64,000 nt of DNA, taken from Dehalococcoidia bacterium. GTDB taxonomy: Bacteria; Chloroflexota; Dehalococcoidia; DSTF01; JALHUB01. The stretch spans positions 16,241-80,240 of the forward strand of contig JBEKKV010000003.1 in assembly GCA_050010555.1 (NCBI GenBank), read 5' to 3'. The position numbers were made by a program, and so were the translations under genes. Position 1 is the stretch's first letter. The number at the start of each line of letters is the position of its first letter. Positions 2,847 to 61,379 of the stretch are shown piece after piece. The notes beneath the pieces are model-generated. The model made no database searches. It had not been told where the DNA came from and worked only from the letters and a program-made list of their open reading frames with translations.

Positions 2847-4196
2847 TCAGCGCGAAGCTCCCTTTCTTCGAGAGGCGGCGATCCCCGCAGCCAACAGCGC
2901 TGCGCCCGCGGCCAGCAGCGCGATGAGGTAGGGTTCGTCGCGGCCAGCGCTTGCCGCCGAGCCGCCGCCCGTATTCGGCGCGGCGACGAGGTTTGAGGAA
3001 GGCTGAGCGCTGGTGGTGGCCGACGGCCCTGGCGTCTCGACGATCGCGTCCGGCGGCATCGAGGGGCCAACGGCACACCCCGCGATATCGATGCCGTCAA
3101 TTCGTTGTCCGTCGGCGAGGGTTACTTGCCTGGAGGCCGGCTGGTAGGGAGGATTGCTGTTGGACGGATCCTGATAGCAGGCGACTTTGAAACGGAGGGT
3201 GTAGGTGCCGGCGGGTAGGTTGTCGAACCGATAGGTGCCGTCATCGCAAAGAGGGGATCCGGGGATGACGTACAACACGCCCACTTCTGGCACGTCTCGG
3301 TAGAGGTCTAGGTAGTCGCCCATGGGGTATTGAGCGCCGGGCGAGCACCAGAGACGTTCTCCGTCATTCCACACGCCATCGTGATTGTCGTCAGAGAAGA
3401 GTCTTCCGCTGATCGTCGATTCTCCACTCAAGAAGTGAAATCCCACCTCGACATTCAGAGTATCCGCTGTGCCCGTCAGGTCGACGGCGTTGGTCGTATC
3501 TTCGGGCGCACCCGGCGTGCCCGGCAGGTCAGGAGTCATGAACGTCTTCTCGTGGAACGTGGCTGCCAAAGAAGACGGCGGAGTCAGCTCAAGGAAGAAG
3601 TGCCCAGGCGGAAGGCCGACGAAATTGAAGCGGCCGGACTGATCGCTTGCCGATGTAATATCGCAGTAGGCCGCCCACAGCCTGTCTTCAGGTCCGCCCT
3701 GCCCATATATCCTTACTTTCCACCCATCAAACCTAGGTTCCCCGGCATCGTCTCGGCCATTCTCATTCTGATCGTTCACAAGGACGCCTGAGACGGTCTT
3801 GGTTCCGCCGTCGAACACGCCAAGGTCAATCCCAGTTGAATCTGTTCCCCTTGGCACGTCGCGGGCGAACGTGGTGGCAGTGGCACAGGGTATCGTACTG
3901 TCCAAGCTCATGCGGACCACGTAATCGACATTGGAAGACGATTGAACGCCCGTGAAGGAGTAGTGACCGTCAGAGTCGGTTCTTGCGTGTTGGACCGGGC
4001 CCCCAAGGAGCTCAACGGTGGCACCCGGAGCTGGCGGTTCACCCAGGTCCCGCTGGCCGTTCAGGTTGAGATCAAAGAACACAGTCCCAGATATGGTGTC
4101 GCCGCCGGCTCCGACCGCCGGACTGACGCCCTTCAGGGCGACAGCCGCGAGCGCGACGGCGACACAGATTCCCAGAAGCACGAGTCTCTTGTGCAT
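2847..4196 (-). CDS. Secreted cell-surface protein with three SdrD-B/Cna-B-like repeats and a C-terminal sortase-like sorting signal
   Basis: Signal peptide 'MHKRLVLLGICVAVALAAVA'. Repeats 'SGTVFFDLNLNGQRDLGEP', 'SGVLVNDQNENGRDDAGEP' and 'SGRLFSDDNHDGVWNDGE'. The C-terminus has 'APNTGGG', an 11-aa spacer, an 18-aa hydrophobic stretch and an 'SRRKGASR' tail. GGAGGT lies 4 nt before the ATG. Confidence 0.6.
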   Translation of the reverse strand: MHKRLVLLGICVAVALAAVALKGVSPAVGAGGDTISGTVFFDLNLNGQRDLGEPPAPGATVELLGGPVQHARTDSDGHYSFTGVQSSSNVDYVVRMSLDSTIPCATATTFARDVPRGTDSTGIDLGVFDGGTKTVSGVLVNDQNENGRDDAGEPRFDGWKVRIYGQGGPEDRLWAAYCDITSASDQSGRFNFVGLPPGHFFLELTPPSSLAATFHEKTFMTPDLPGTPGAPEDTTNAVDLTGTADTLNVEVGFHFLSGESTISGRLFSDDNHDGVWNDGERLWCSPGAQYPMGDYLDLYRDVPEVGVLYVIPGSPLCDDGTYRFDNLPAGTYTLRFKVACYQDPSNSNPPYQPASRQVTLADGQRIDGIDIAGCAVGPSMPPDAIVETPGPSATTSAQPSSNLVAAPNTGGGSAASAGRDEPYLIALLAAGAALLAAGIAASRRKGASR

Positions 4197-4352: not shown

Positions 4353-5045
4353 ATGAGCATCGCCAGCATCATCGACAGGGCAAGGACGGACCAACGCAAG
4401 GTCCTGACCGAGGTGGAGTCGAAGGACATCCTGGAGGAGGCGGGCATTCCCACCGTGCACGCCCGTCTGGCGACAAACGCAGACGAGGCCGCCGCGGTCG
4501 CGCAAGAGATGGGCTTCCCGGTGGCGCTGAAGATCGTCTCGCCGGAGATCACGCACAAGAGCGACGTCGGCGGCGTGAAGCTGAACGTGGCCACGCCGGC
4601 CGAGGCGAAGGCGGCCTTCGACGAGATCGTTGCAGCGGCCAAGAAGGCGCAGCCGGACGCCCGAATCGACGGCGTTTCGGTGCAGAAGATGGCGCGCCCG
4701 GGCATCGAGGTGATCATGGGGATGAGCCAGGACGCGCAGTTCGGGCCGGTGCTCATGTTCGGTCTCGGCGGCATACTCGTCGAGGTGCTGAAGGACGTGT
4801 CTTTCCGCCTGGTGCCGATGACGCCGCGAGATGCCCGCCAGATGGTGCAGGAGATCAAGGGCCGGCCGCTGCTCGACGGCTACCGCGGGCAGGAGCCGGC
4901 GGACGTGGCGGCGCTGGAGAAGCTGCTGCTGCGCCTGTCGGAGTTCGTCGAGGCGCACCCGGAGATTGCTGAGTTGGACCTGAACCCCATCTTCGCCTAC
5001 AAGGACGGCGCCGTGGCCGTCGACGCGCGCATCATCCTTTCTTGA
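4353..5045 (+). CDS. ADP-forming acetyl/acyl-CoA synthetase, beta (ATP-grasp) subunit
   Basis: 230 aa. 'LTEVESKDILEEAGIPT...GFPVALKIVSPEITHKSDVGGVKLNV' matches the ATP-grasp domain of NDP-forming acyl-CoA synthetases. GGAG lies 6 nt upstream. Confidence 0.7.
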   Translation: MSIASIIDRARTDQRKVLTEVESKDILEEAGIPTVHARLATNADEAAAVAQEMGFPVALKIVSPEITHKSDVGGVKLNVATPAEAKAAFDEIVAAAKKAQPDARIDGVSVQKMARPGIEVIMGMSQDAQFGPVLMFGLGGILVEVLKDVSFRLVPMTPRDARQMVQEIKGRPLLDGYRGQEPADVAALEKLLLRLSEFVEAHPEIAELDLNPIFAYKDGAVAVDARIILS

Positions 5046-5079: not shown

Positions 5080-6513
5080 TTGAACGACATAGTCCCCCGA
5101 CTAAAGAGAGTGCTGAATCCACGCAGCATCGCCGTCGTCGGCGACAAGCGGGCGATGGGCTACTTCTGGCTGCGCAACATGAGTCCCTTTAAGGGAAAGC
5201 TCTACTCCGTCCAGATCGACCCTAACGAGATGCCGGGCATCGCGGAGCTGGGCGTCTCGAACTACTCGAGCCTGCTCGACGTGCCGGACGAAATCGACTA
5301 CGTGGTCTGCGCCGTGCCGCGCCAGATCGCGCCCCGCGTCGTCGCCGACTGCGTCGCGAAGAAGGTGGGCGGCGTTTCGCTGTTCACGTCGGGCTTCGCG
5401 GAGACGGGCGAAGCGGAGGGCATTCGCTTGCAAGAGCAGATAGCGACCACGGCGCGCGAGGGCGGGATCGTCCTCGTCGGGCCGAACTGCATGGGCATCT
5501 ACAACCGACGGCTCGGCGTGCGGCAGTCGATCGAGCAGCCGGCCGGCGACGAGGGCGATGTCGGCTTCATCTCGCACAGCGGCACGCACGCAATTAACTT
5601 CAGCCTCATCGGCGCGGTGCACGGCGTGAAGATCAGCAAGTCGGTGAGCGCGGGAAACTCGGCGGTCGTTGGGCCGGCCGACTATCTGGAGTACCTAGCG
5701 CAGGACGCGGAAACGAAGGTCATCGCGATGTACCTGGAGGGCGTGCAGGACGGCCATCGCCTCTTCGACGTGTTGCGCCGCACGACGCCGCTGAAGCCGG
5801 TGGTAGTATGGAAAGGCGGCCTATCGGAGGGCGGCCGGCGGGCGATGTTCTCGCACACAGGCGGGCTGGCGACGTCGGAGGCGGGCTGGCAAGCGCTGGT
5901 GCGGCAGACCGGGGTCGTCGCGACGGACAGCCTCGACGAGACGCTGGACGCGGTGAAGGCGCTGCTCTTCACGAAGCCGGCGACGGGTCGTCGCATGGGG
6001 CTGGTGGCGCTCACCGGCGGGCAGTCGGTGGTGATTACTGACGCGTTCGAGCGCGAGGGGCTGGAGGTGCCGCTCCTCAGCGAGCGGTCGTACGCAGAGC
6101 TTGCGGGTTTCTTCAACATCGTCGGCGGGAGCTATCGCAACCCGCTGGACGCCGGCGGAACGCTGGGATTCGGCGCGTCGCCGGAGAACCTGCAGCGCCT
6201 GCTTCGCGTGCTGGAGAACGACGAGAATATCGACGCGGTGGCGGTCGAGGTGTCGAGGCGGATGATGGCGCGGCAGGCGCCGTCGGGAACGCCGTCGGCG
6301 GACTGGCTGCCGGAGATGCTGGGCCGGCATCGCGAAGAATCGGTCAAGCCGCTGATGGTGGTGCTGCACCCCGGGCACCTGGAGTCGACTGTGGCGCAGG
6401 AGCGCGAGAAGTACGTGGAGCGCGGCATCGCGACGTTCGCGGGCTTCGAGCAGGCGGCACGGGCGTTCGCGCGCGCGGTGCGGTATCGACGGTTTGTGGC
6501 GGGGATGGAATAG
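5080..6513 (+). CDS. ADP-forming acetyl/acyl-CoA synthetase, alpha subunit (CoA-binding plus succinyl-CoA-synthetase-like domains)
   Basis: 477 aa. N-terminal CoA-binding Rossmann ('SIAVVGDKR') and 'GPNCMGI', 'FISHSGT' ligase-CoA motifs. The start is TTG at 5080 or GTG at 5110, uncertain. Confidence 0.7.
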   Translation: MNDIVPRLKRVLNPRSIAVVGDKRAMGYFWLRNMSPFKGKLYSVQIDPNEMPGIAELGVSNYSSLLDVPDEIDYVVCAVPRQIAPRVVADCVAKKVGGVSLFTSGFAETGEAEGIRLQEQIATTAREGGIVLVGPNCMGIYNRRLGVRQSIEQPAGDEGDVGFISHSGTHAINFSLIGAVHGVKISKSVSAGNSAVVGPADYLEYLAQDAETKVIAMYLEGVQDGHRLFDVLRRTTPLKPVVVWKGGLSEGGRRAMFSHTGGLATSEAGWQALVRQTGVVATDSLDETLDAVKALLFTKPATGRRMGLVALTGGQSVVITDAFEREGLEVPLLSERSYAELAGFFNIVGGSYRNPLDAGGTLGFGASPENLQRLLRVLENDENIDAVAVEVSRRMMARQAPSGTPSADWLPEMLGRHREESVKPLMVVLHPGHLESTVAQEREKYVERGIATFAGFEQAARAFARAVRYRRFVAGME

Positions 6514-6526
6514 TGGTGTGGTGGCG

Positions 6527-6608
6527 TCGGCGCGACGAGCAAAGCGAGGCGCGCAACAAGAACGCGATCAGCGCACTCGTCGACAACCGATCGAACATGC
6601 CATGGAAG
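6527..6608 (+). repeat. Intergenic repeat element, copy A (TTCGGCGCGACGAG...GAGCGCAACAAGAACGCGATCAGCG...CATGGAAG)
   Basis: Shares a ~25-nt near-identical core and flanking modules with copies at 20694-20786 and 60245-60339. This copy lacks the short hairpin module. Confidence 0.55.
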
Positions 6609-9567: not shown

Positions 9568-10911
9568 ATGACATTGGAGGGCGGGCCTGAGGGCACGAGC
9601 AGCAACGCGGATAGCGCCGCGAAGCTGTTCGACCTGCATTTCGATCGCGTATACGATTTCTGTCTGCGAACGCTGGGGATGCCGGAAGCGGCGCTGGAAT
9701 CGGCGGAGGAGGCGTTCCGAAAGGCGCTGACACCTTCAGCGCCGGCGCTGGCGACCGCCACGTTTGACGTACGACTATTCTCCGCCGCCCTGGATGCGAT
9801 GGAGCCGCGCCTGAGCCTGCGCCATCCGGGCTCGATTGGGAGCAACCCGCTGTTCCATCAGGTGGACGTCGACCGACTGGGCGACGCCACGCGGGCGTCC
9901 TCGGCGCAGGAGACGGCGGCAGTCATCTGGGAGACGGCGTCGCGGCTGGACCCAGCGGACAGCGTGCTGCTTGACCTGCGCTACCGGCAGAACTTCGCAG
10001 AAGCGGACCTGGCGACGATCTTGAGCACGACCGAGAGCGCGATCAGGTCCAGGCTGTCGAAGCTGGTAAAGAAGATCGAGCCGGAGCTGTCGGCGCTTAT
10101 CGTCGGCAGGCGCGGCAGTCGCAACTGCGACGGGATGCGGCGCGCGATGCTGGGGCTGCCGATTGCGGCGACGCGCGGCCAGGTGAAGAAGGTCGTTGAT
10201 AAGCACACGCGCTCCTGTCCGCTGTGCACGGCGACGCGGATGGGAATGGCATCGCCGCTGGCGGTGCTGGCCGCATTCTCCATCGTCGCGCCTTCGGCCG
10301 GTGAAAGCGACGCGGTGAAGGAACGGCTGATGGCGGCCGCGGCATCGCTGCCCGCGGTAGCGCTGCCGGTCGCGGCGCCGACGCCCAAGCAAACGCCTGT
10401 TGCGACGCCACCACCACCGTCGCCGGTCGCGATGGGCGGAGCGGTAGGAGGAGGCGGGCCGCCGGGGATATTGGTCGGCCTGGCGTCGCTGTGGCGTAAT
10501 CTCTTCGGCGGTTTGAACGTCTCCGGCAACAAAGCACTGCCGATCATGGGCGGGGTGTTCGTGATCCTGGTAGCAATCGGCATAGCGTTCGGCACGGGCG
10601 TGCTGGGCGGCGGAGGCGGCAGCGCAGCGCCGACTCGCACGCCAACGGCGACGAGGACGGTCACTTCGACGCCTTCCCCGAAAGTGACCTCGACGCCAAC
10701 GGAGGAGGCAACGGAAACGCCGGAAGAGGCTACGGCGACGGTCGCGCCGACCGTAACACCGCCCACGGCGACGCCGTCACACGCCGCAAGCGCGACACCG
10801 AGGCCGACACGCACACCGACTGCAACGGCGGAGGCGACGGAGACCCCGACAGAGGCTCCCACGCACACGCCGCTTCCAACGAAGACGCCCACCCCAAATT
10901 CGACGCCCTAG
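9568..10911 (+). CDS. ECF-type RNA polymerase sigma factor fused to a zinc-finger (ZAS-like) anti-sigma domain, TM helices and a Thr/Pro-rich tail
   Basis: Sigma region 2-like ('FDLHFDRVYDFCLRTLG') and region 4-like ('LDLRYRQNFAEADLATILSTTESAIRSRLSKL') segments. These are followed by 'HTRSCPLC', two hydrophobic helices and a low-complexity TPTATxT tail, all in one ORF. GAGGGGG precedes the second ATG at 9568. Confidence 0.6.
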   Translation: MTLEGGPEGTSSNADSAAKLFDLHFDRVYDFCLRTLGMPEAALESAEEAFRKALTPSAPALATATFDVRLFSAALDAMEPRLSLRHPGSIGSNPLFHQVDVDRLGDATRASSAQETAAVIWETASRLDPADSVLLDLRYRQNFAEADLATILSTTESAIRSRLSKLVKKIEPELSALIVGRRGSRNCDGMRRAMLGLPIAATRGQVKKVVDKHTRSCPLCTATRMGMASPLAVLAAFSIVAPSAGESDAVKERLMAAAASLPAVALPVAAPTPKQTPVATPPPPSPVAMGGAVGGGGPPGILVGLASLWRNLFGGLNVSGNKALPIMGGVFVILVAIGIAFGTGVLGGGGGSAAPTRTPTATRTVTSTPSPKVTSTPTEEATETPEEATATVAPTVTPPTATPSHAASATPRPTRTPTATAEATETPTEAPTHTPLPTKTPTPNSTP

Positions 10912-20597: not shown

Positions 20598-20693
20598 GGT
20601 TCGGAGCGCTCCTTGTTGATCTATACATCTATTGTAGCGGACTGTCGGAAGGACGAAAAGGAGCCGGAGCGTGAACCAGCAGCGGAGGAGGAT

Positions 20694-20786
20694 TTCGGCG
20701 CGACGAGTCCGCCAAAGGCGGAGAAGGAGCGCAACGAGAACGCGATCAGCGTACGACACAACGTCGCCACGAGCGATTCATGGAAG
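20694..20786 (+). repeat. Intergenic repeat element, copy B
   Basis: TTCGGCGCGACGAG + CCGCCaaaGGCGG hairpin + GAGCGCAACGAGAACGCGATCAGCG ... CATGGAAG. It lies between the rplS stop and the def start, on the strand opposite to both genes. Confidence 0.55.
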
Positions 20787-22618: not shown

Positions 22619-23547
22619 CGGTAGTGATGATGACAGCAATCCATATTCCGGTAATGGTGCGAGAGGTCCTCGACGGACTGGCAGTGCGGCCCGGCGCCAA
22701 CTACGTCGACGGGACGGTAAGTGAGGGCGGCCACGCCGAGGCCATCCTGGAAGCGGGCGGCCGGCTTCTCGGCATCGACCGCGATCCGGGTGCGTTGGCA
22801 GTCGCGTCGGAGCGATTGAGCCCTTACGGCGACCGCGTGGCGCTGGTTGAAGGGAACTACGTGGAGATGGCGGCCATATGCCGTCGCCACGGATTCGCAC
22901 CCGTCGATGGGATTCTGCTGGACCTCGGCGTCTCGTCCTTCCAACTGGAACACGGACGGCGCGGCTTCAGTTTCAATCGCGAGGGGCCGCTGGACATGCG
23001 TTTCAGCCCCACACACACGCTCACCGCGGACGACATCGTCAACGGGTACCGGGAGGAAGACCTGGCGGACCTGATCTGGCGTTTCGGAGAGGAACGCCGC
23101 AGCCGCCGCATCGCCCGCTGCATCGTTCAGCAGCGACCGATCCTCACCACGACTCAGTTGGCCCGAGCCGTCGAGCAGGCCGTGGGCAAGAGGGGTCAAA
23201 GCGTTACCCACCCCGCCACCAGAACGTTCTTAGCCCTTCGTATTGCGGTAAACCAAGAGCTAGCCCACCTAGCTGCCGCGCTTGAAGAAGCCCACGGTCT
23301 GCTCGACGGCTCCGGCTCCCGGCTCGCGGTCATCTCCTACCATTCGTTGGAGGACCGCATTGTCAAGGAGTTCATGCGGAGAGAGGCAAGCGATTGCATC
23401 TGTCCGCCGGAAACTCCCACCTGCACCTGCGATCATCGGGCGACAATTCGCCTCGTGACCCGAAAGCCGCTTCGGCCTTCGGACCTGGAGGTGCTGATTA
23501 ACCCGCGCTCTCGCAGCGCCCGATTGCGAGTCGCGGAAAAGCTGTAG
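22615..23547 (+). CDS. rsmH: 16S rRNA (cytosine1402-N4)-methyltransferase
   Basis: 'HIPVMVREVLDGL', 'GGHAEAIL' and 'DLGVSSFQL'. ATGA overlap with mraZ. Confidence 0.9.
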   Translation: MTVVMMTAIHIPVMVREVLDGLAVRPGANYVDGTVSEGGHAEAILEAGGRLLGIDRDPGALAVASERLSPYGDRVALVEGNYVEMAAICRRHGFAPVDGILLDLGVSSFQLEHGRRGFSFNREGPLDMRFSPTHTLTADDIVNGYREEDLADLIWRFGEERRSRRIARCIVQQRPILTTTQLARAVEQAVGKRGQSVTHPATRTFLALRIAVNQELAHLAAALEEAHGLLDGSGSRLAVISYHSLEDRIVKEFMRREASDCICPPETPTCTCDHRATIRLVTRKPLRPSDLEVLINPRSRSARLRVAEKL

Positions 23548-45808: not shown

Positions 45809-46605
45809 AGGTCGGATTCATAGGCGGCGGCAAGATGGCAGAGGCGCTCATCGGCGCCCTGCTCGTCAACGGCGTCTCCTCGCCGGAGGAGCTGGCCGTC
45901 GGCGAGCCGCTGCCCGCCCGCCGCCAGACGCTGGCCGAGCAGTACCACGTCCAGGTCTCCGCCGACAACCGCAAGGCGCTGGCGGGCGCGGAGCTCGTCG
46001 TCGCCGCCGTCAAGCCGAACCAGTTCAGCGCCGTCGCCGCGAATCTGCAGGGACAGCTTCAGGCGGACCAGACGGCCGTCTCCATCATGGCCGGAATCAC
46101 TCTGAAGAGCCTGCGCGAAAGCCTTCGCCACGAGCGAGTCGTGCGGGTGATGCCGAACCCGCCGGCGCAGATCGGCGAAGGGATGAGCGTCTGGACGGCG
46201 ACACGTGAGGTCGACGAGGAGGCACGGCAGAAGGTGCGGCGGCTTCTCCAGGCGGCGGGCAAGGAGCTCTACGTCGAAGAGGAGCGCTTCATCGACATGG
46301 CGACGGCCGTGTCGGGCAGCGGCGCCGGCTTCGTCTTCCTGTTCATCGAAGCGTTCATCGACGGCGCCGTGCACATCGGCGTCCCGCGCGACATGGCGCG
46401 CGAGCTGGTGGTCCAGACGTTCGCGGGCTCAGCGGCGCTGGTGGACCGCTCCGGCAAGACGCCCGGCGACCTGCGGGCAATGACGACGACGCCCGGCGGC
46501 ACCACTGCCGAGGGGCTGCTAGTACTGGAAGAGGCGGGAATCCGCGCCGCCGTAACGGAAGCACTTATTGCGGCCTTCGAGAAGTCGAAGGCCCTGGGAG
46601 GTTGA
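45805..46605 (+). CDS. proC: Pyrroline-5-carboxylate reductase
   Basis: 'MKVGFIGGGKMAEALIGALL' NAD(P)-binding start and a P5CR C-terminal dimerisation domain ('TTPGGTTAEGL'). Confidence 0.85.
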   Translation: MKVGFIGGGKMAEALIGALLVNGVSSPEELAVGEPLPARRQTLAEQYHVQVSADNRKALAGAELVVAAVKPNQFSAVAANLQGQLQADQTAVSIMAGITLKSLRESLRHERVVRVMPNPPAQIGEGMSVWTATREVDEEARQKVRRLLQAAGKELYVEEERFIDMATAVSGSGAGFVFLFIEAFIDGAVHIGVPRDMARELVVQTFAGSAALVDRSGKTPGDLRAMTTTPGGTTAEGLLVLEEAGIRAAVTEALIAAFEKSKALGG

Positions 46606-55134: not shown

Positions 55135-55158
55135 GCTTCTGGTCGCCAGAAATGAAAA

Positions 55159-55192
55159 GCCGAGGCTTTCCAGCCTCGGCTGCTTTCTCTTT
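55159..55192. terminator. Bidirectional rho-independent terminator between convergent genes
   Basis: Perfect 9-bp stem GCCGAGGCT-ttcc-AGCCTCGGC, flanked by an A-run upstream and TGCTTTCTCTTT downstream. Confidence 0.55.
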
Positions 55193-55474: not shown

Positions 55475-55574
55475 CGTTTCTCCACCTTGATCAACTTCTG
55501 TTGGGATTATACATCGGGGGGAAGCGAGGTTCAATGAAGGCAGCGATTGCGGCCGACGGAATGGACGGATCGAG

Positions 55575-55650
55575 GGTGCGCCCGGCGGGATTCGAACCCA
55601 CGGCCTGTCGCCCGAGGCGACCGCTCTATCCGACCGGAGGGGACCCAGCC
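55575..55650 (-). pseudogene. Degenerate tRNA-like remnant sharing an exact 32-nt 3' end with the adjacent Arg-like tRNA
   Basis: 55575-55606 is identical to 55692-55723, covering the CC discriminator, acceptor 3' strand, T-arm and start of the variable loop. The upstream part keeps a D-loop-like GGATAGAGC, but the anticodon loop is only 5 nt and there is no matching 5' acceptor strand. Confidence 0.4.
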
Positions 55651-55690: not shown

Positions 55691-55767
55691 TGGTGCGCCC
55701 GGCGGGATTCGAACCCACGGCCTCAGCCTCCGCAGGGCTGCGCTCTATCCAGCTGAGCTACGAGCGC
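55691..55767 (-). tRNA. tRNA-Arg-like; the anticodon reads GCG, which is atypical
   Basis: Complete cloverleaf with 7-bp acceptor, D-arm GCTC/GAGC, anticodon stem CAGCC/GGCTG with loop CUGCGGA, T-arm GTGGG-TTCGAAT-CCCGC and encoded CCA. The body closely resembles bacterial tRNA-Arg. Confidence 0.7.
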
Positions 55768-55821: not shown

Positions 55822-55907
55822 TGGTGCCGAAGGTGGGATTTGAACCCACACGCCCTTACGGACACTACGCCCTGAACGTAGCGCGTCTGCCATTCCGCCA
55901 CTTCGGC
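55822..55907 (-). tRNA. tRNA-Leu (anticodon CAG)
   Basis: 86 nt with a long variable arm. Anticodon stem CTACG/CGTAG with loop UUCAGGG. T-loop TTCAAAT. CCA encoded. Confidence 0.9.
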
Positions 55908-55917
55908 AAGGCCTGCA

Positions 55918-55994
55918 TGGTGGGCGGTACAGGGCTCGAACCTGTGACCTCTTCCGTGTGAAGGAAGCGCTCGTACCAACTGAGCTAACCGCCC
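55918..55994 (-). tRNA. tRNA-Val (anticodon CAC)
   Basis: 77 nt. Acceptor GGGCGGT/ACCGCCC. Anticodon stem CTTCC/GGAAG with loop UUCACAC. T-loop TTCGAGC. CCA encoded. Confidence 0.9.
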
Positions 55995-57684: not shown

Positions 57685-57760
57685 TGGTGGCAGCGGAGGG
57701 ATTTGAACCCCCGACCAAGGGCTTATGAGTCCCCTGCTCTACCGACTGAGCTACGCTGCC
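57685..57760 (-). tRNA. tRNA-Met (anticodon CAT); elongator-type G1-C72, could alternatively be tRNA-Ile2 (lysidine)
   Basis: 76 nt. Anticodon loop CUCAUAA. T-arm GGGGG-TTCAAAT-CCCTC. CCA encoded. Confidence 0.85.
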
Positions 57761-58369: not shown

Positions 58370-60229
58370 ATGAGTATACCAATGATCGCGAACAAGCAAC
58401 CCTTAATCGAGCGCGTAGGCGCGCTGCCGAACAAGCCCGGCGTCTACATCTTCCGTAGCGAAGATGGGCGCGTCATATACGTCGGGAAGGCGGCGTCGCT
58501 GCGCAGTCGCGTGCGCTCGTACTTCGGCTCGCCGCGGAGCATGGAGCCGAAGGTGCGGGCGCTCGCGTCGAGCATTGCCGAGTTCGACTACATCGTCACG
58601 AATACGGCGCAGGAGGCGCTGCACCTGGAGGCGACGCTGGTCAAACGCCATCAGCCCGTCTTCAACGTGCGCCTGAAGGACGACAAGCACTACCCGTACC
58701 TGAAGATCGACGTGCAGAACAAGTGGCCGCGGGTCGAAATTACGCGGCGGATCGAAAACGACGGCGGACGCTACTTCGGGCCATATGCCAGCGCCAGCTC
58801 CGTGCGCCGGACGCTCGACGTGGTGAAGCGGCTCTTCCCCTGGCGACCCTGCACCGAGGAGGTGACCGGAGGCCGGCCCCGGCCCTGCCTGGACTTCTTC
58901 ATCGGCCGCTGCATCGCGCCCTGCTCCGGCGCCTGCTCGGAGGCCGAGTACGACGAGGTGATCCGGCAGGTCATCCTCTTCCTCGAAGGGCGCACGGAGA
59001 ACGTGCTGCGGGCGCTGCGGGCGCAGATGGACGAGGCGTCGCGGAACATGCAGTACGAGCGCGCGGCGATCCTGCGAGACCAGATTCGGGCTATCGAGAA
59101 CGTGTCGGAGGCGCAGGTGACAGCGTACGCGCGGCCGACGGACGAAGACGTCTTCGGGATGGCGCGGTCGGACGGCGAAGCGGTGGCGCAGGTGCTGTTC
59201 GTCCGCGGCACGAAGATGATCGGCGGCGATCACTTCCCGCTCGACGGCGCGAAGGGCGAGCCCGACGCGGAGGTGATGAACGGCTTCCTCAAACAGTTCT
59301 ACGAGTCGTCGACATACGTCCCGCGCACGGTCCTGCTGCCGCTGGAGATACCGGAGACGGCGGAGATCGAGGAGTGGCTTTCGGAGCGACGCGGTGGCCG
59401 GGTCAAGCTGGTGACGCCGAGGCGCGGCAACAAGCGCCGTCTGATTGCGATGGCGACGGAGAACGCCCGCGAGGCGCTGGAGGTAGCACGGCTGCGCTGG
59501 CTGACGGACACGGGCAAGACGCGCCAGGCGCTGGAGGAGCTCCAGGAGGAGCTAAACCTGCCCGCCCTGCCGAATCGCATCGAGTGCTACGACATCTCCG
59601 ACATCATGGGCGCGCATCCGGTTGGCAGCATGGTCGTTTTCATCGGCGGCCGGCCGCGGCGCGCGGAGTACCGTCGCTTTCGGATCAAGAGCGTCGAAGG
59701 CGCGAACGACGTGGCGATGATGGCGGAAGTGCTGCGGCGACGCTTCAAGCGCGCGGCGCAGGCGGTAGAGGCGCAGGAGTCGGCGCAGGCCGAAGGCTGG
59801 GGCGCCCTGCCGGACCTGCTAATCGTCGACGGCGGCAAGGCGCAGCTCAACGCGGCGCTCGACGTACTTCGGGAGACGGGCGCGCCGTTCATCCCGGCCG
59901 CGGGGCTGGCGAAACAGCAGGAGGAGCTTTATGTAAAGGACGTGTCGGAGCCGATTGTGCTGTCGCGCACGTCGCAGGCGCTCTACCTGCTGCAACGCGT
60001 CCGAGACGAGGCGCATCGGTTTGCAATCACGTACCATCGCAGCGTGCGGCAGAAGGCCGGGACGCGCTCGGCGCTCGACGCGATACCCGGCGTGGGGCCG
60101 AAGCGGAAGCAGGCGCTGCTGCGGAAGTTCGGCTCGGTGCGGGAGATACGGGAGGCGAGCGTCGACGAGATTGCGTCGACGGTGGGGTTCACGCGATCGC
60201 TGGCGGAGCGGGTGAAGGAATACCTCTAG
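58370..60229 (+). CDS. uvrC: Excinuclease ABC subunit C
   Basis: N-terminal GIY-YIG ('GVYIFRSEDGRVIYVGKA'), UvrBC-interaction region, RNase H-like endonuclease domain and C-terminal (HhH)2. 619 aa. Confidence 0.9.
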   Translation: MSIPMIANKQPLIERVGALPNKPGVYIFRSEDGRVIYVGKAASLRSRVRSYFGSPRSMEPKVRALASSIAEFDYIVTNTAQEALHLEATLVKRHQPVFNVRLKDDKHYPYLKIDVQNKWPRVEITRRIENDGGRYFGPYASASSVRRTLDVVKRLFPWRPCTEEVTGGRPRPCLDFFIGRCIAPCSGACSEAEYDEVIRQVILFLEGRTENVLRALRAQMDEASRNMQYERAAILRDQIRAIENVSEAQVTAYARPTDEDVFGMARSDGEAVAQVLFVRGTKMIGGDHFPLDGAKGEPDAEVMNGFLKQFYESSTYVPRTVLLPLEIPETAEIEEWLSERRGGRVKLVTPRRGNKRRLIAMATENAREALEVARLRWLTDTGKTRQALEELQEELNLPALPNRIECYDISDIMGAHPVGSMVVFIGGRPRRAEYRRFRIKSVEGANDVAMMAEVLRRRFKRAAQAVEAQESAQAEGWGALPDLLIVDGGKAQLNAALDVLRETGAPFIPAAGLAKQQEELYVKDVSEPIVLSRTSQALYLLQRVRDEAHRFAITYHRSVRQKAGTRSALDAIPGVGPKRKQALLRKFGSVREIREASVDEIASTVGFTRSLAERVKEYL

Positions 60230-60244
60230 CTACGGGGCTCTCAG

Positions 60245-60339
60245 TTCGGCGCGACGAGCCCGCCTCGGGCGGACGAGGAGCGCAACAAGAACGCGACCAT
60301 CGCACACCCCACTGCCGTTGCGAAGGCGACATGAAAAGT
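60245..60339 (+). repeat. Intergenic repeat element, copy C, with a further partial 5' module at 60372-60398
   Basis: TTCGGCGCGACGAG + CCGCCtcgGGCGG hairpin + GAGCGCAACAAGAACGCGACCATCGCAC ... CATGAAAAG. Downstream, TCGGCGCGAGGCttcGCCTCGCGC repeats the 5' module as a perfect 9-bp hairpin. Confidence 0.55.
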
Positions 60340-60452
60340 CGACGCAACATGAGGGTCGGCTGCTTGCAGTAGCGTGGTGTCGGCGCGAGGCTTCGCCTCG
60401 CGCATCAATGATCCCGAATTCCTAAATGATTTCGACGGCGCGACAGCTTCAC

Positions 60453-61250
60453 CTAGCTGTTGATCGCTTCCTCCTCGTCGTCCTCCTCGTCGTCGAAGTC
60501 CTCCCTGATCGCGAACGGCGTCACGTACTCGCTCAGCGTCTTCGCGTTCTGGACGGCATAAGCGTTCGCATCATTGTTGAAATATACGAATACCTGGCGG
60601 ACGTCCTCCGGAAGATCGCGCAGGCGACCGGCCCAGATCGCCAGATCGCCGTCCGGGTACGAGCCCCCGTAGATGCTGTCGGCGCCGTGAAAGCGGAGAT
60701 ACGCGAAGTCGGTCGTCGCTTCCAGGGGCGTCTCCCAGCCTGCCATATGGAAGGCGCAGAAGCCGGCGTTGTGCACTCGCAGCAGCGAGAAGACTTCGGC
60801 GTTGAACCAGGAGTCGTGGCGGAACTCGAAAACGTGGCGCATATCGGTCGGCAACAGCGAAAGGAACGCAGCGAGACGCTCAACGTTTTCCGTCTTGTAA
60901 TGGAAGTTGGGCGGCAGCTGGTAAAGCACGGGACCCAGCGTGTGGCCGAGCAGTCGAGCGCGGGCGAGGAAGTTCTGCAGCGGCTCCTCGCAGTCCTTCA
61001 ATCGCTTCACGTGAGTCATGTAGCGACTGGCCTTCACGGCGAACTGGAAGCCGCGTGGCGCCGACTTTCCCCACTTTCGCCAGGTGTCTTCTGAGGACAG
61101 ACGGTAGAAGCTGTTGTTCACCTCGACAGTGCAGAAGTGCTTGCTGTAGAACTCAAACCAGTAGCGCGCGGGCAAGTCCGGCGGGTAGAAAGAGCCGCGC
61201 CAGTGCTTGTATACCCAGCCGGAAGTCCCAATATCATAGTGTGAAGGCAT
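60453..61250 (-). CDS. DUF72 (UPF0759/YecE-like) family protein
   Basis: 'YDIGTSGWVYKHWRGSFYP', 'FCTVEVNNSFYR' and 'FAVKASRYMTH' match DUF72. Acidic C-terminal tail. Start is Met11 of the listed ORF. Confidence 0.75.
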   Translation of the reverse strand: MPSHYDIGTSGWVYKHWRGSFYPPDLPARYWFEFYSKHFCTVEVNNSFYRLSSEDTWRKWGKSAPRGFQFAVKASRYMTHVKRLKDCEEPLQNFLARARLLGHTLGPVLYQLPPNFHYKTENVERLAAFLSLLPTDMRHVFEFRHDSWFNAEVFSLLRVHNAGFCAFHMAGWETPLEATTDFAYLRFHGADSIYGGSYPDGDLAIWAGRLRDLPEDVRQVFVYFNNDANAYAVQNAKTLSEYVTPFAIREDFDDEEDDEEEAINS

Positions 61251-61379
61251 CGTCGTCCACTCGCTCGAAGTATTCCCCACGATGGCGGAGGTCGCATTAT
61301 ATCATCGGTCGCGATTGGGGACCGCTTGAGCTTGTGCTATCGTAAGGGAAGAGTGGGAATAGAGTCGATGGAGTCTGAG

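Follow-up and report, generated by a model that had tools for sequence, protein, structure and literature searches.

A probable hairpin-bounded modular repeat at the uvrC-DUF72 junction in a soil and peat lineage of Chloroflexota

The BOX elements of the pneumococcus are intergenic sequences built from modules in variable number; they have predicted stable structures, and the enzyme that mobilises them is not known. The biology of IS608 and ISDra2 provides the basis on which a repeat can be compared with PATE and with the ends of IS200/IS605 elements. Part of the knowledge on the IS200/IS605 family is summarised in PMC6006769. REP and BIME sequences are defined as repetitive extragenic palindromes (REP) tagged with GTAG or CGTC (PMC3733652). 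According to that definition, the REP unit is an imperfect palindrome of 20-40 bp with little else conserved, the GTAG or CGTC is unpaired at one end of the stem, and clusters are mostly inverted dimers (head-to-head or tail-to-tail), head-to-tail arrangements being rare (PMC3733652). We report here on a repeat found in a stretch of 64,000 nt from a Dehalococcoidia bacterium (contig JBEKKV010000003.1, positions 16,241 to 80,240; the whole stretch is called the window below), and in particular on its copy C, which lies between uvrC and a gene of the DUF72 family. On balance, we favour the reading that this copy represents the long form of a modular, non-coding repeat that is bounded by hairpins and specific to a soil and peat clade of Chloroflexota. 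The element is gained and lost as a clean block and forms arrays, and we infer that it is a selfish or near-neutral DNA segment.

A first-pass annotation of the window had noticed, downstream of copy C, a perfect 9-bp hairpin in what was taken for a tandem second 5' module. Sequence and folding confirmed this hairpin, here called H2. It lies at 60383-60403, about 8 nt to the right of the position first given to it (about 60372-60398). Its stem, which had been described as of a 10-bp type, consists of nine perfect pairs (60383-60391 with 60395-60403) around a 3-nt loop (60392-60394), and G60382 and A60404, which flank it, are unpaired. It can be seen that the start of H2 repeats the start of the 5' module (TCGGCGCGA), and that TCGGCGCGAGGC-ttc-GCCTCGCGC occurs at 60380-60403, about 134 nt past the first TCGG. 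The folding energy of H2 is -17.4 kcal/mol as RNA and -12.0 kcal/mol as DNA, with z about -4 for both strands. Taken singly, a perfect 9-bp hairpin is no more than chance would give in the window: three distinct perfect hairpins of at least 9 bp were seen where 4.5 +/- 2.9 are expected (first-order Markov model; 65% GC), and the shared 9-mer TCGGCGCGA occurs 9 times where 4.5 occurrences are expected. H2 gains its significance from the other copies: in at least 12 further ones of the long form a hairpin stands at the same place, behind the leader of the first hairpin, H1 (AGCGGCGTGGKKTC), so that the second module, once thought peculiar to copy C, is the standard 3' end of the long form. The parts of copy C are given below, where numbers beginning with L denote loci of relatives compared with the window.

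About 60230-60408, plus strand: copy C, the whole element, long form, filling most of the intergenic region.
60230-60245, plus strand: presumed 5' leader of copy C, 16 nt, CTACGGGGCTCTCAGT; left boundary as suggested by L039b.
60249-60283, plus strand: hairpin H1 of copy C, with a GCGC clamp, a tandem G·A step, a C-G pair, a second tandem G·A step, a G-C pair and an apical stem, according to folding and pair counts.
60260-60272, plus strand: apical mini-hairpin CCGCC-tcg-GGCGG within H1, optional, absent or replaced in many copies.
60278-60305, plus strand: conserved core of copy C, GAGCGCAACAAGAACGCGACCATCGCAC, the first 6 nt of which are the 3' arm of H1.
60306-60337, plus strand: variable segment of fixed length (24 nt) and then the CATGGAAG box, here CATGAAAA at 60330-60337, according to alignments.
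60338-60369, plus strand: long-form extension GTCGACGCAACATGAGGGTCGGCTGCTTGCAG, kept in L018, L019a, L027, L050a, L052a and L069b.
60370-60382, plus strand: second leader TAGCGTGGTGTCG, homologous to the leader that precedes H1 in other copies.
60383-60403, plus strand: hairpin H2, GCGCGAGGC-ttc-GCCTCGCGC, with which the long form ends on its 3' side; it is the 5' module of a following unit, cut short.
60404-60408, plus strand: presumed 3' tail of copy C, ATCAA; right boundary as suggested by L039b.
60431-60447, plus strand: TTCGACGGCGCGACAGC, a partial look-alike of the 5' module, the third such resemblance, not counted in the element.

The intergenic region measures 223 bp (60230-60452). It had been described as 224 bp long and filled by these modules throughout; the element does occupy about 60230-60408, and the last 44 nt lie outside it. 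The outer boundaries are modelled on L039b, a cleanly inserted copy: 16 nt precede TCGG there, hence the leader of 16 nt, and the insertion stops 5 nt past the foot of H2, hence the end of the tail at 60408. At the place of the copy C leader, CTACGGGGCTCTCAGT, other copies have AGCGGCGTGGKKTC. In copy C, TCGGCGCGACGAG (60246-60258) is followed by CCGCC-tcg-GGCGG at 60260-60272, as had been stated for the first module. The accompanying remarks that copy B has an AAA loop and that copy A lacks the apical stem also hold. The look-alike TTCGACGGCGCGACAGC is not conserved at the orthologous locus (L018/L054), and it is probably a chance resemblance or a decayed remnant.

The 28-nt core has three matches at up to two mismatches in the window, where none is expected; these are copies A, B and C, all on the plus strand. 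One genome per species was scanned with the 20-nt core, a match being counted as a true copy if it also bore the 5' module and the flanks. True copies were found in only three Chloroflexota metagenome-assembled genomes (MAGs): OY969814.1, a complete chromosome of 2.28 Mb (4 exact-core copies), a 'Dehalococcoidia' MAG from SPRUCE peat (6 copies) and CAWJHZ01 (2 copies). The remaining 27 matches were the bare core in unrelated taxa. A metagenome scan and an nhmmer profile added about 25 copies, chiefly on peat and soil contigs. Altogether, pattern scans and nhmmer in related Chloroflexota MAGs and peat or soil metagenomes gave about 40 copies beyond the three of the window. Viral contigs had only chance matches to the 20-nt core, and plasmids had none.

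Alignment of the copies shows that one unit is about 95 nt long and consists of a leader, H1, the core, 24 variable nucleotides and CATGGAAG. The leader is of about 15 nt and often AGCGGCGTGGKKTC; the family core is of 26 nt, GCGCAACAAGAACGCGATCAGCGCAC; and the 24-nt segment after it differs at nearly all positions between paralogues while its length is constant. The long form is a unit plus about 32 nt (NTCGACGCAACATGAGG...TTG), a second leader and H2. It is represented by copy C, its orthologue L018/L054 downstream of uvrC, L019a, L027/L051, L031, L013, L041, L050a, L052a, L069b and L039b. Three observations bear out the idea of a tandem second 5' module: H2 shares its leader with H1; what is left of a core, AACCAGGAACGC, comes after it in L013; and a complete second unit begins in its slot, with its own H1, in L025, L067 and L059. 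These sequences show H2 to be the beginning of a further unit that breaks off early, and the element is thus bounded by two hairpins of like orientation. Head-to-tail arrays of 2-3 units are common (L050, L051, L052, L055, L059, L064, L066, L067 and L069), and every array found was head-to-tail.

To describe the pairing of H1, pairs were counted over 24 distinct variants, and also on alignment A2. The conserved part is a basal helix, 5'-GCGC GA C GA G...C GA G GA GCGC-3', in which four G-C/C-G pairs come first, then a single Watson-Crick pair with a tandem G·A/A·G on each side of it, and lastly a G-C pair. The central Watson-Crick pair (pair 7) is intact in all 24 variants, as C-G in 17, G-C in 5 and U-A in 2; at pair 10, 20 variants have G-C and 2 have A-U. 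When the four G·A positions are changed, which happens in several copies, they become almost only Watson-Crick pairs (G-C, A-U, G-C and C-G), and in the L025/L031 type H1 is a perfect 11-bp stem, GCGCGATGCGC/GCGCATCGCGC. As to H2, 91.5% of cells pair on alignment A3 and 5 of its 9 pairs show double changes; none of 500 shuffles reaches the observed values, and slid controls pair in 20-57% of cells. The H2 of L013 is GCGTCCGCC/GGCGGACGC, and in L039b a 13-bp stem of unrelated sequence stands at this position. The alignment of more copies, on which the first-pass annotation had made its proposal depend, has therefore brought compensatory changes to light in both hairpins, and both are kept through such changes.

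The second hairpin had been equated with the apical CCGCC/GGCGG stem of the first, and that stem had been taken for a conserved part of the element; neither view agrees with the alignments. H2 begins in the register of H1 (GCGCGA...) and both end in CGCGC/GCGC, so that it matches the whole basal helix. The apex of H1 is most commonly CGAAG, and otherwise TCCGCC-NNN-GGCGGA, GTCC-GNA-GGAC, or one or two inserted copies of GCCCAGACGGGC, and the length of H1 ranges from 25 to 53 nt across copies. On this comparison the apical stem is optional, and the conserved structure is the basal helix. The inserted GCCCAGACGGGC is a 12-nt mini-hairpin (GCCC-AGAC-GGGC). Several copies carry one or two of it at the apex of H1 or in its right arm (L039 468-576; L069 548-941; L050 3935-4058; L024 about 5850-5900), and it is also found outside the element. 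It looks like a separate nested micro-repeat, and the window has no match to it. A perfect 20-nt palindrome, CCTGCCTGCCGGCAGGCAGG, absent from the window, interrupts the core or the variable region of three copies, each time at another point (L039 about 4860-4890; L041 3800-3894; L046 2097-2191).

Selection on structure had been suggested from the variation among the window copies. The maintenance of the stems through two-sided changes agrees with this; part of the pattern may have another origin, as template-switch repair in DNA quasi-palindromes could account for the conversion of G·A to Watson-Crick pairs without selection. Such repair cannot yield the flips from C-G to G-C. Individual copies are in decay: in copy B, compared with the close relative L070, the adjacent substitutions CG to GA at 20718-20719 break pairs 9 and 10 of H1, and pair 11 of copy C is a C·A mismatch. 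As RNA, the plus strand folds somewhat better than its complement (-19.6 vs -15.2, -9.8 vs -7.7 and -18.1 vs -17.7 kcal/mol). The G/A-rich plus strand would be the structured strand, as RNA or as single-stranded DNA, because an isolated covarying pair amid purine-purine mismatches makes sense only there.

Structure beyond the two hairpins was looked for as well. The whole of 60230-60452 folds no more stably than shuffles (z = -1.28 and +0.11 for the two strands). Pairing of the core ACGCGAUC with the semi-conserved GAUCGNNC that precedes CATGG, as a second helix, was tried in two registers and rejected: about 60% of cells pair, as in slid controls, and covariation is impossible since the 5' side is invariant. 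RNAalifold adds just a 3-bp GCG/CGC stem within the core, without covariation.

Gain of the element as a block can be seen by comparison with close relatives. Contig_35550 of CAWJHZ01 shares synteny with the window at about 96% identity; L039 and the window are about 96% identical over 2.5 kb, and L039 carries a copy, L039b, where the window has none.

10971|10972: empty site in the window, occupied in L039 by a 222-bp long-form copy on the minus strand (about 4745-4966).

The site is intergenic and upstream of a selB-like GTPase gene. In the orientation of the element, the empty site of the window reads GGGGTTCGTCAA^CGCAGCATTAAC and the filled site reads GGGTTCGTCGA[GGTGAGTCGCCCGAAC-TCGGCGCG...H2...CCCCA-ACCAG]CGCAGCATTAAC. 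In this single clean filled/empty pair, no target-site duplication, terminal inverted repeats or microhomology were found. The left junction lies 19 nt before the foot of H1, after the flank GTTCGTC(A/G)A (one insertion), and the right junction 5 nt after the foot of H2.

Relatives with DUF72 proteins 75% or 69% identical to that of the window share with it the synteny of the genes for a Xer-like recombinase, PCMT, DUF72 and uvrC. In these more distant relatives the uvrC-DUF72 junction is free of the element (the two genes overlap by 4 nt in L076 and are 34 nt apart in L077), and therefore copy C is an insertion in the window/SPRUCE lineage. At the same junction L075, with a DUF72 protein 81% identical to the window's, has just past the uvrC stop (3305-3769) a 154-aa gene with a weak NlpE match and an 8-bp hairpin, CCCCAGGC-ttca-GCCTGGGG. 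The number of units per locus also varies between relatives. Upstream of the gene of a zinc alcohol dehydrogenase (ADH), A stands alone in the window and L039, and a long form plus A is present in L050 and L052. Between rplS and def, B stands alone in the window and L070-L074, OY969814.1 has a long form plus B, and L051 has two long forms.

The nearly perfect core of most copies is partly a matter of ascertainment, as the scans were baited with the exact core. Copies found by the profile or by flanking proteins (L025a, L039b, L051b, L059a, L066, L069a/c and L070) have mutated or interrupted cores. The comparison of copy B with L070 is the only one free of this bias, and it gave 5 changes in about 60 nt of H1 and core, and about 8 in about 150 nt of flank. 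Because the core evolves no more slowly than the flanks here, there is no evidence of host-level purifying selection on individual copies.

The loci fall into 11 groups according to their neighbours: 7 are tandem (2 sense and 5 antisense), 3 convergent and 1 divergent. The flanking genes are unrelated (uvrC, DUF72, rplS/def, a CoA ligase/ADH pair, leuS, thiolase and ribonucleotide reductase), and together with the mixed orientation this rules out a cis-regulator of one pathway. All three copies of the window are on the G-rich strand; L039b and the copies of OY969814.1 are mixed in orientation.

How might such a segment spread? New copies would arise through single-strand, hairpin-guided cut-and-paste of the plus (top) strand by a trans-acting HUH/Y1 transposase, the candidate type being an IS200/IS605 TnpA or a RAYT; arrays would then grow and shrink through recombination between units, and if the mRNAs of neighbouring genes were affected at all, this would be incidental. 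The transposase step taken by itself is a tentative proposal and may well be wrong. It is made by analogy with the geometry of IS200/IS605 ends, namely like-oriented hairpins, similar leaders, the lack of terminal inverted repeats and target-site duplication, and fixed junction distances. Several observations weigh against a mobile repeat of this kind. No insertion sequence with tnpA or tnpB was seen beside any copy in roughly 300 kb of loci, where no directed search was made. Four exact-core copies in a complete 2.28-Mb chromosome is a low number for a REP-like family. Copies stand at the same loci in several genomes differing by 10-30% in protein sequence, which argues that most copies are old and not recently mobile. 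L039b, on the minus strand, is opposite to its neighbours, so that there is no clean replication-strand bias. The ends of the element are defined by one clean filled/empty pair, from which, as a single case, a target motif is not derivable. Finally, the mosaic conservation among paralogues (the base of H1, the core and CATGG) could reflect a host function, and in part ascertainment.

The main alternative is a paralogous family of small RNAs transcribed from the plus strand, with H1 as a 5' structural or protein-binding hairpin, the core AACAAGAACGCGAUCAGCGC as a seed or protein site, and H2 as a terminator without a U-tract. The copies are intergenic, placed independently of orientation and conserved across genomes; the lone Watson-Crick pair amid tandem G·A steps covaries and the G/A-rich strand folds better; the best conserved block is an A-rich, single-stranded core, and the variable apex of H1 behaves like an expansion segment. 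All the same, we consider this explanation unlikely. Copies A and C start 14-16 nt past the upstream stop codon with no promoter-like site found, short forms lack the 3' hairpin, blocks are gained and lost between near-identical genomes with a varying number of units per array, no second helix is supported and no Rfam match was obtained (with Rfam 15, only tRNAs reached threshold in the window, and the best E-values in 60200-60480, 0.42 and 0.55, are far below gathering scores). In the unbiased comparison of copy B with L070, moreover, the core does not evolve more slowly. The repeat might instead have been exapted by the host as an mRNA 3'-end element, a terminator without U-tract or a stabiliser against exonucleases, as proposed for some REPs. 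H1 and H2 are both stable GC-rich stems, in 10 of the 11 locus groups the repeat stands downstream of the end of one gene or more, and A, C and the leuS copies begin 14-40 nt from a stop codon in sense orientation. Such a role, which would concern the sense-oriented copies, is nevertheless quite improbable in our judgement, as 5 of the 7 tandem groups are antisense to both neighbours, which would place the weaker complement in the mRNA, the uvrC-DUF72 junction works without the element in relatives, and the conserved core and CATGGAAG box are left unexplained. Nor does either hairpin look like an intrinsic terminator, a role that the first-pass annotation had proposed to check: an intrinsic terminator scan reported neither H1 nor H2 on either strand, no T-run follows them on either strand, and the only match within the element was a weak 6-pair stem in the core on the minus strand. 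Scans for sigma-70 promoter and terminator consensus around all three copies found nothing at the hairpins.

Coding was considered in both directions. On the minus strand a 55-aa open reading frame (ORF) spans 60241-60408, with a hydrophobic, LIAFLLR-like stretch through the core that is hydrophobic in that frame in all three window copies. In the orthologue L018, however, the frame contains a stop and is broken. The H1 variants differ in length by steps of 4, 10, 14 and 25 nt, none of them divisible by 3; each candidate frame is interrupted by stops in other copies, and neither start nor stop codons are conserved. A small protein gene is thus very improbable and, as far as these alignments go, refuted for practical purposes. 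No conserved ORF was found on either strand. A leader peptide or small ORF in the CATGGAAG box was rejected too, the 11-codon ORF of A and B being without stop in C and truncated in L019a and L027; and so was an integron attC site, since GCGCAAC and GTTGCG, for all their likeness to R''/R' boxes, stand around the hairpin in the order GTT...AAC, which on inspection is opposite to that of attC, and since the 5' GTT lacks conservation. A GC-rich genome might also yield the 9-bp hairpin by accident, with the resemblance to the 5' module as a coincidental 9-mer. The expected frequency of such hairpins (3 seen, 4.5 expected) and the nine occurrences of TCGGCGCGA in the window would fit, but the same hairpin, leader and core distance in at least 12 other copies from other genomes, with compensatory variants, leave practically no room for chance, and we regard it as refuted by these sequences. 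There is in addition a rather small probability that H1 and the core form a functional strand-specific motif, that is, a helix clamped by GCGC, containing two tandem sheared G·A steps and followed by a single-stranded tail of 22 nt, recognised by a dedicated protein. If this were true, it would mean an undescribed HUH-type mobilisation system of Chloroflexota with its own hairpin grammar, or a mobile multi-copy small RNA family.

The other copies of the window and the genes that flank copy C are as follows.

6518-6608, plus strand: copy A, short form; H1 at 6530-6554 with a CAAAG apex, core at 6549-6576, CATGGAAG at 6601-6608.
20686-20786, plus strand: copy B, short form with an apical stem; H1 at 20698-20732, core at 20727-20754, CATGGAAG at 20779-20786.
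58370-60229, plus strand: uvrC, upstream flank of copy C, stop TAG at 60227-60229; ORF and Pfam UvrC_RNaseH_dom, UVR, HHH_5 and GIY-YIG.
60453-61280, minus strand: DUF72 gene, convergent flank, start at 61280 (GTG) or 61250 (ATG); Pfam DUF72, E = 4.5e-72.

The convergent arrangement of uvrC and DUF72, as first annotated, agrees with ORFs and Pfam. Copy A lies between a CoA-ligase-like gene and the Zn-ADH gene, both co-directional with it, and copy B lies between rplS and def, antisense to both. TATAAT or TACAAT hexamers are present on the minus strand at 61292-61297 and 20640-20645, about 10-35 nt upstream of the starts of DUF72 and def, and in L065 a TACAAT precedes the ATG by 9 nt; their position suggests very short leaders or leaderless mRNAs in this lineage. 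Elsewhere in the window, perfect 9-10-bp hairpins unrelated to the repeat in sequence are found at 46572-46593 and 55158-55181 (GGCCTTCGA-gaag-TCGAAGGCC and AGCCGAGGC(T)-ttcc-(A)GCCTCGGCT). An inverted repeat of 27 nt, 93% complementary, has its arms at 23161-23187 and 23290-23316, 102 nt apart. Direct repeats 126 nt apart (GGAGGCRACGGARAC...) lie at 10704-10858 within a coding region rich in Pro, Thr and Ala, which differs from L039 by a 9-nt indel. On the minus strand, four tRNA genes attain the Rfam gathering score (55694-55767, 55825-55907, 55921-55994 and 57688-57760), and the tRNA-like direct repeat families also take in 55570-55606, which suggests a further tRNA gene below the gathering threshold.

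As it stands, the element is an ordinary kind of genomic feature. Its family of small structured repeats had not been described, and it occurs in a clade of Chloroflexota that is uncultured and abundant in soil. A precise anatomy is now supplied, from the unit and the long form to the arrays and the nested mini-hairpins, together with one clean empty/filled site. For annotators, it gives a reason against calling ORFs of 50-150 aa across these regions. The interchange of G·A and Watson-Crick pairs provides a natural example of a helix kept via non-canonical pairs. If a partner enzyme were found, the family would offer a simple model of hairpin-guided single-strand transposition outside Proteobacteria.

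Compared with the known systems, the element had been likened to REP, and this places it in the right general neighbourhood. Like REP and BIME it is short, non-coding, intergenic and GC-rich, with imperfect hairpins that are structurally conserved, and it is clustered and varies in copy content between relatives. REPs are thought to act as single-stranded hairpins for HUH/Y1 (RAYT) enzymes, and the same idea is put forward here for the element. In contrast to REP, the unit is of about 95-160 nt with a long non-palindromic conserved core: H1 is always followed by the 26-nt core, with the CATGGAAG box 50 nt downstream. The stems carry no GTAG or CGTC tag, their 5' neighbour being KTCG or TCCC; a GTAG occurs about 14 nt upstream of H2 in some copies only. 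The arrays are head-to-tail and not inverted dimers, the copy number appears to be in the tens, not hundreds, and there is no known RAYT association. The element therefore falls outside the REP definition (PMC3733652) in unit size, tag, dimer orientation and probably copy number.

Classical miniature inverted-repeat transposable elements offer no better place for it, as neither terminal inverted repeats nor a target-site duplication were seen at the L039b insertion. The pneumococcal BOX elements are likewise built from modules in variable number, intergenic and structured. They have no sequence relationship to the element, and their ends (A and C boxes) are mutually complementary, whereas the end hairpins here are direct repeats. 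PATE and the IS200/IS605 ends differ from the element in that no resident insertion sequence with matching ends, tnpA or tnpB was linked to it, where no directed search was made; short forms without a second hairpin, and head-to-tail arrays sharing a hairpin, are also atypical of PATE. The resemblance lies in the two like-oriented, homologous subterminal hairpins of the long form with a similar short sequence before each, in the lack of terminal inverted repeats and, in the one clean insertion, of target-site duplication, in the L039b junctions 19 nt 5' of the foot of H1 and a few nucleotides 3' of H2, and in a strand-specific function, which the element may share. Judged from its long forms, it has the structure of a PATE-like element, REP being a remoter variation on the same principle. 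Taken together, it works like REP and PATE, and it is best set beside them as a family of its own and not filed as a member of either.

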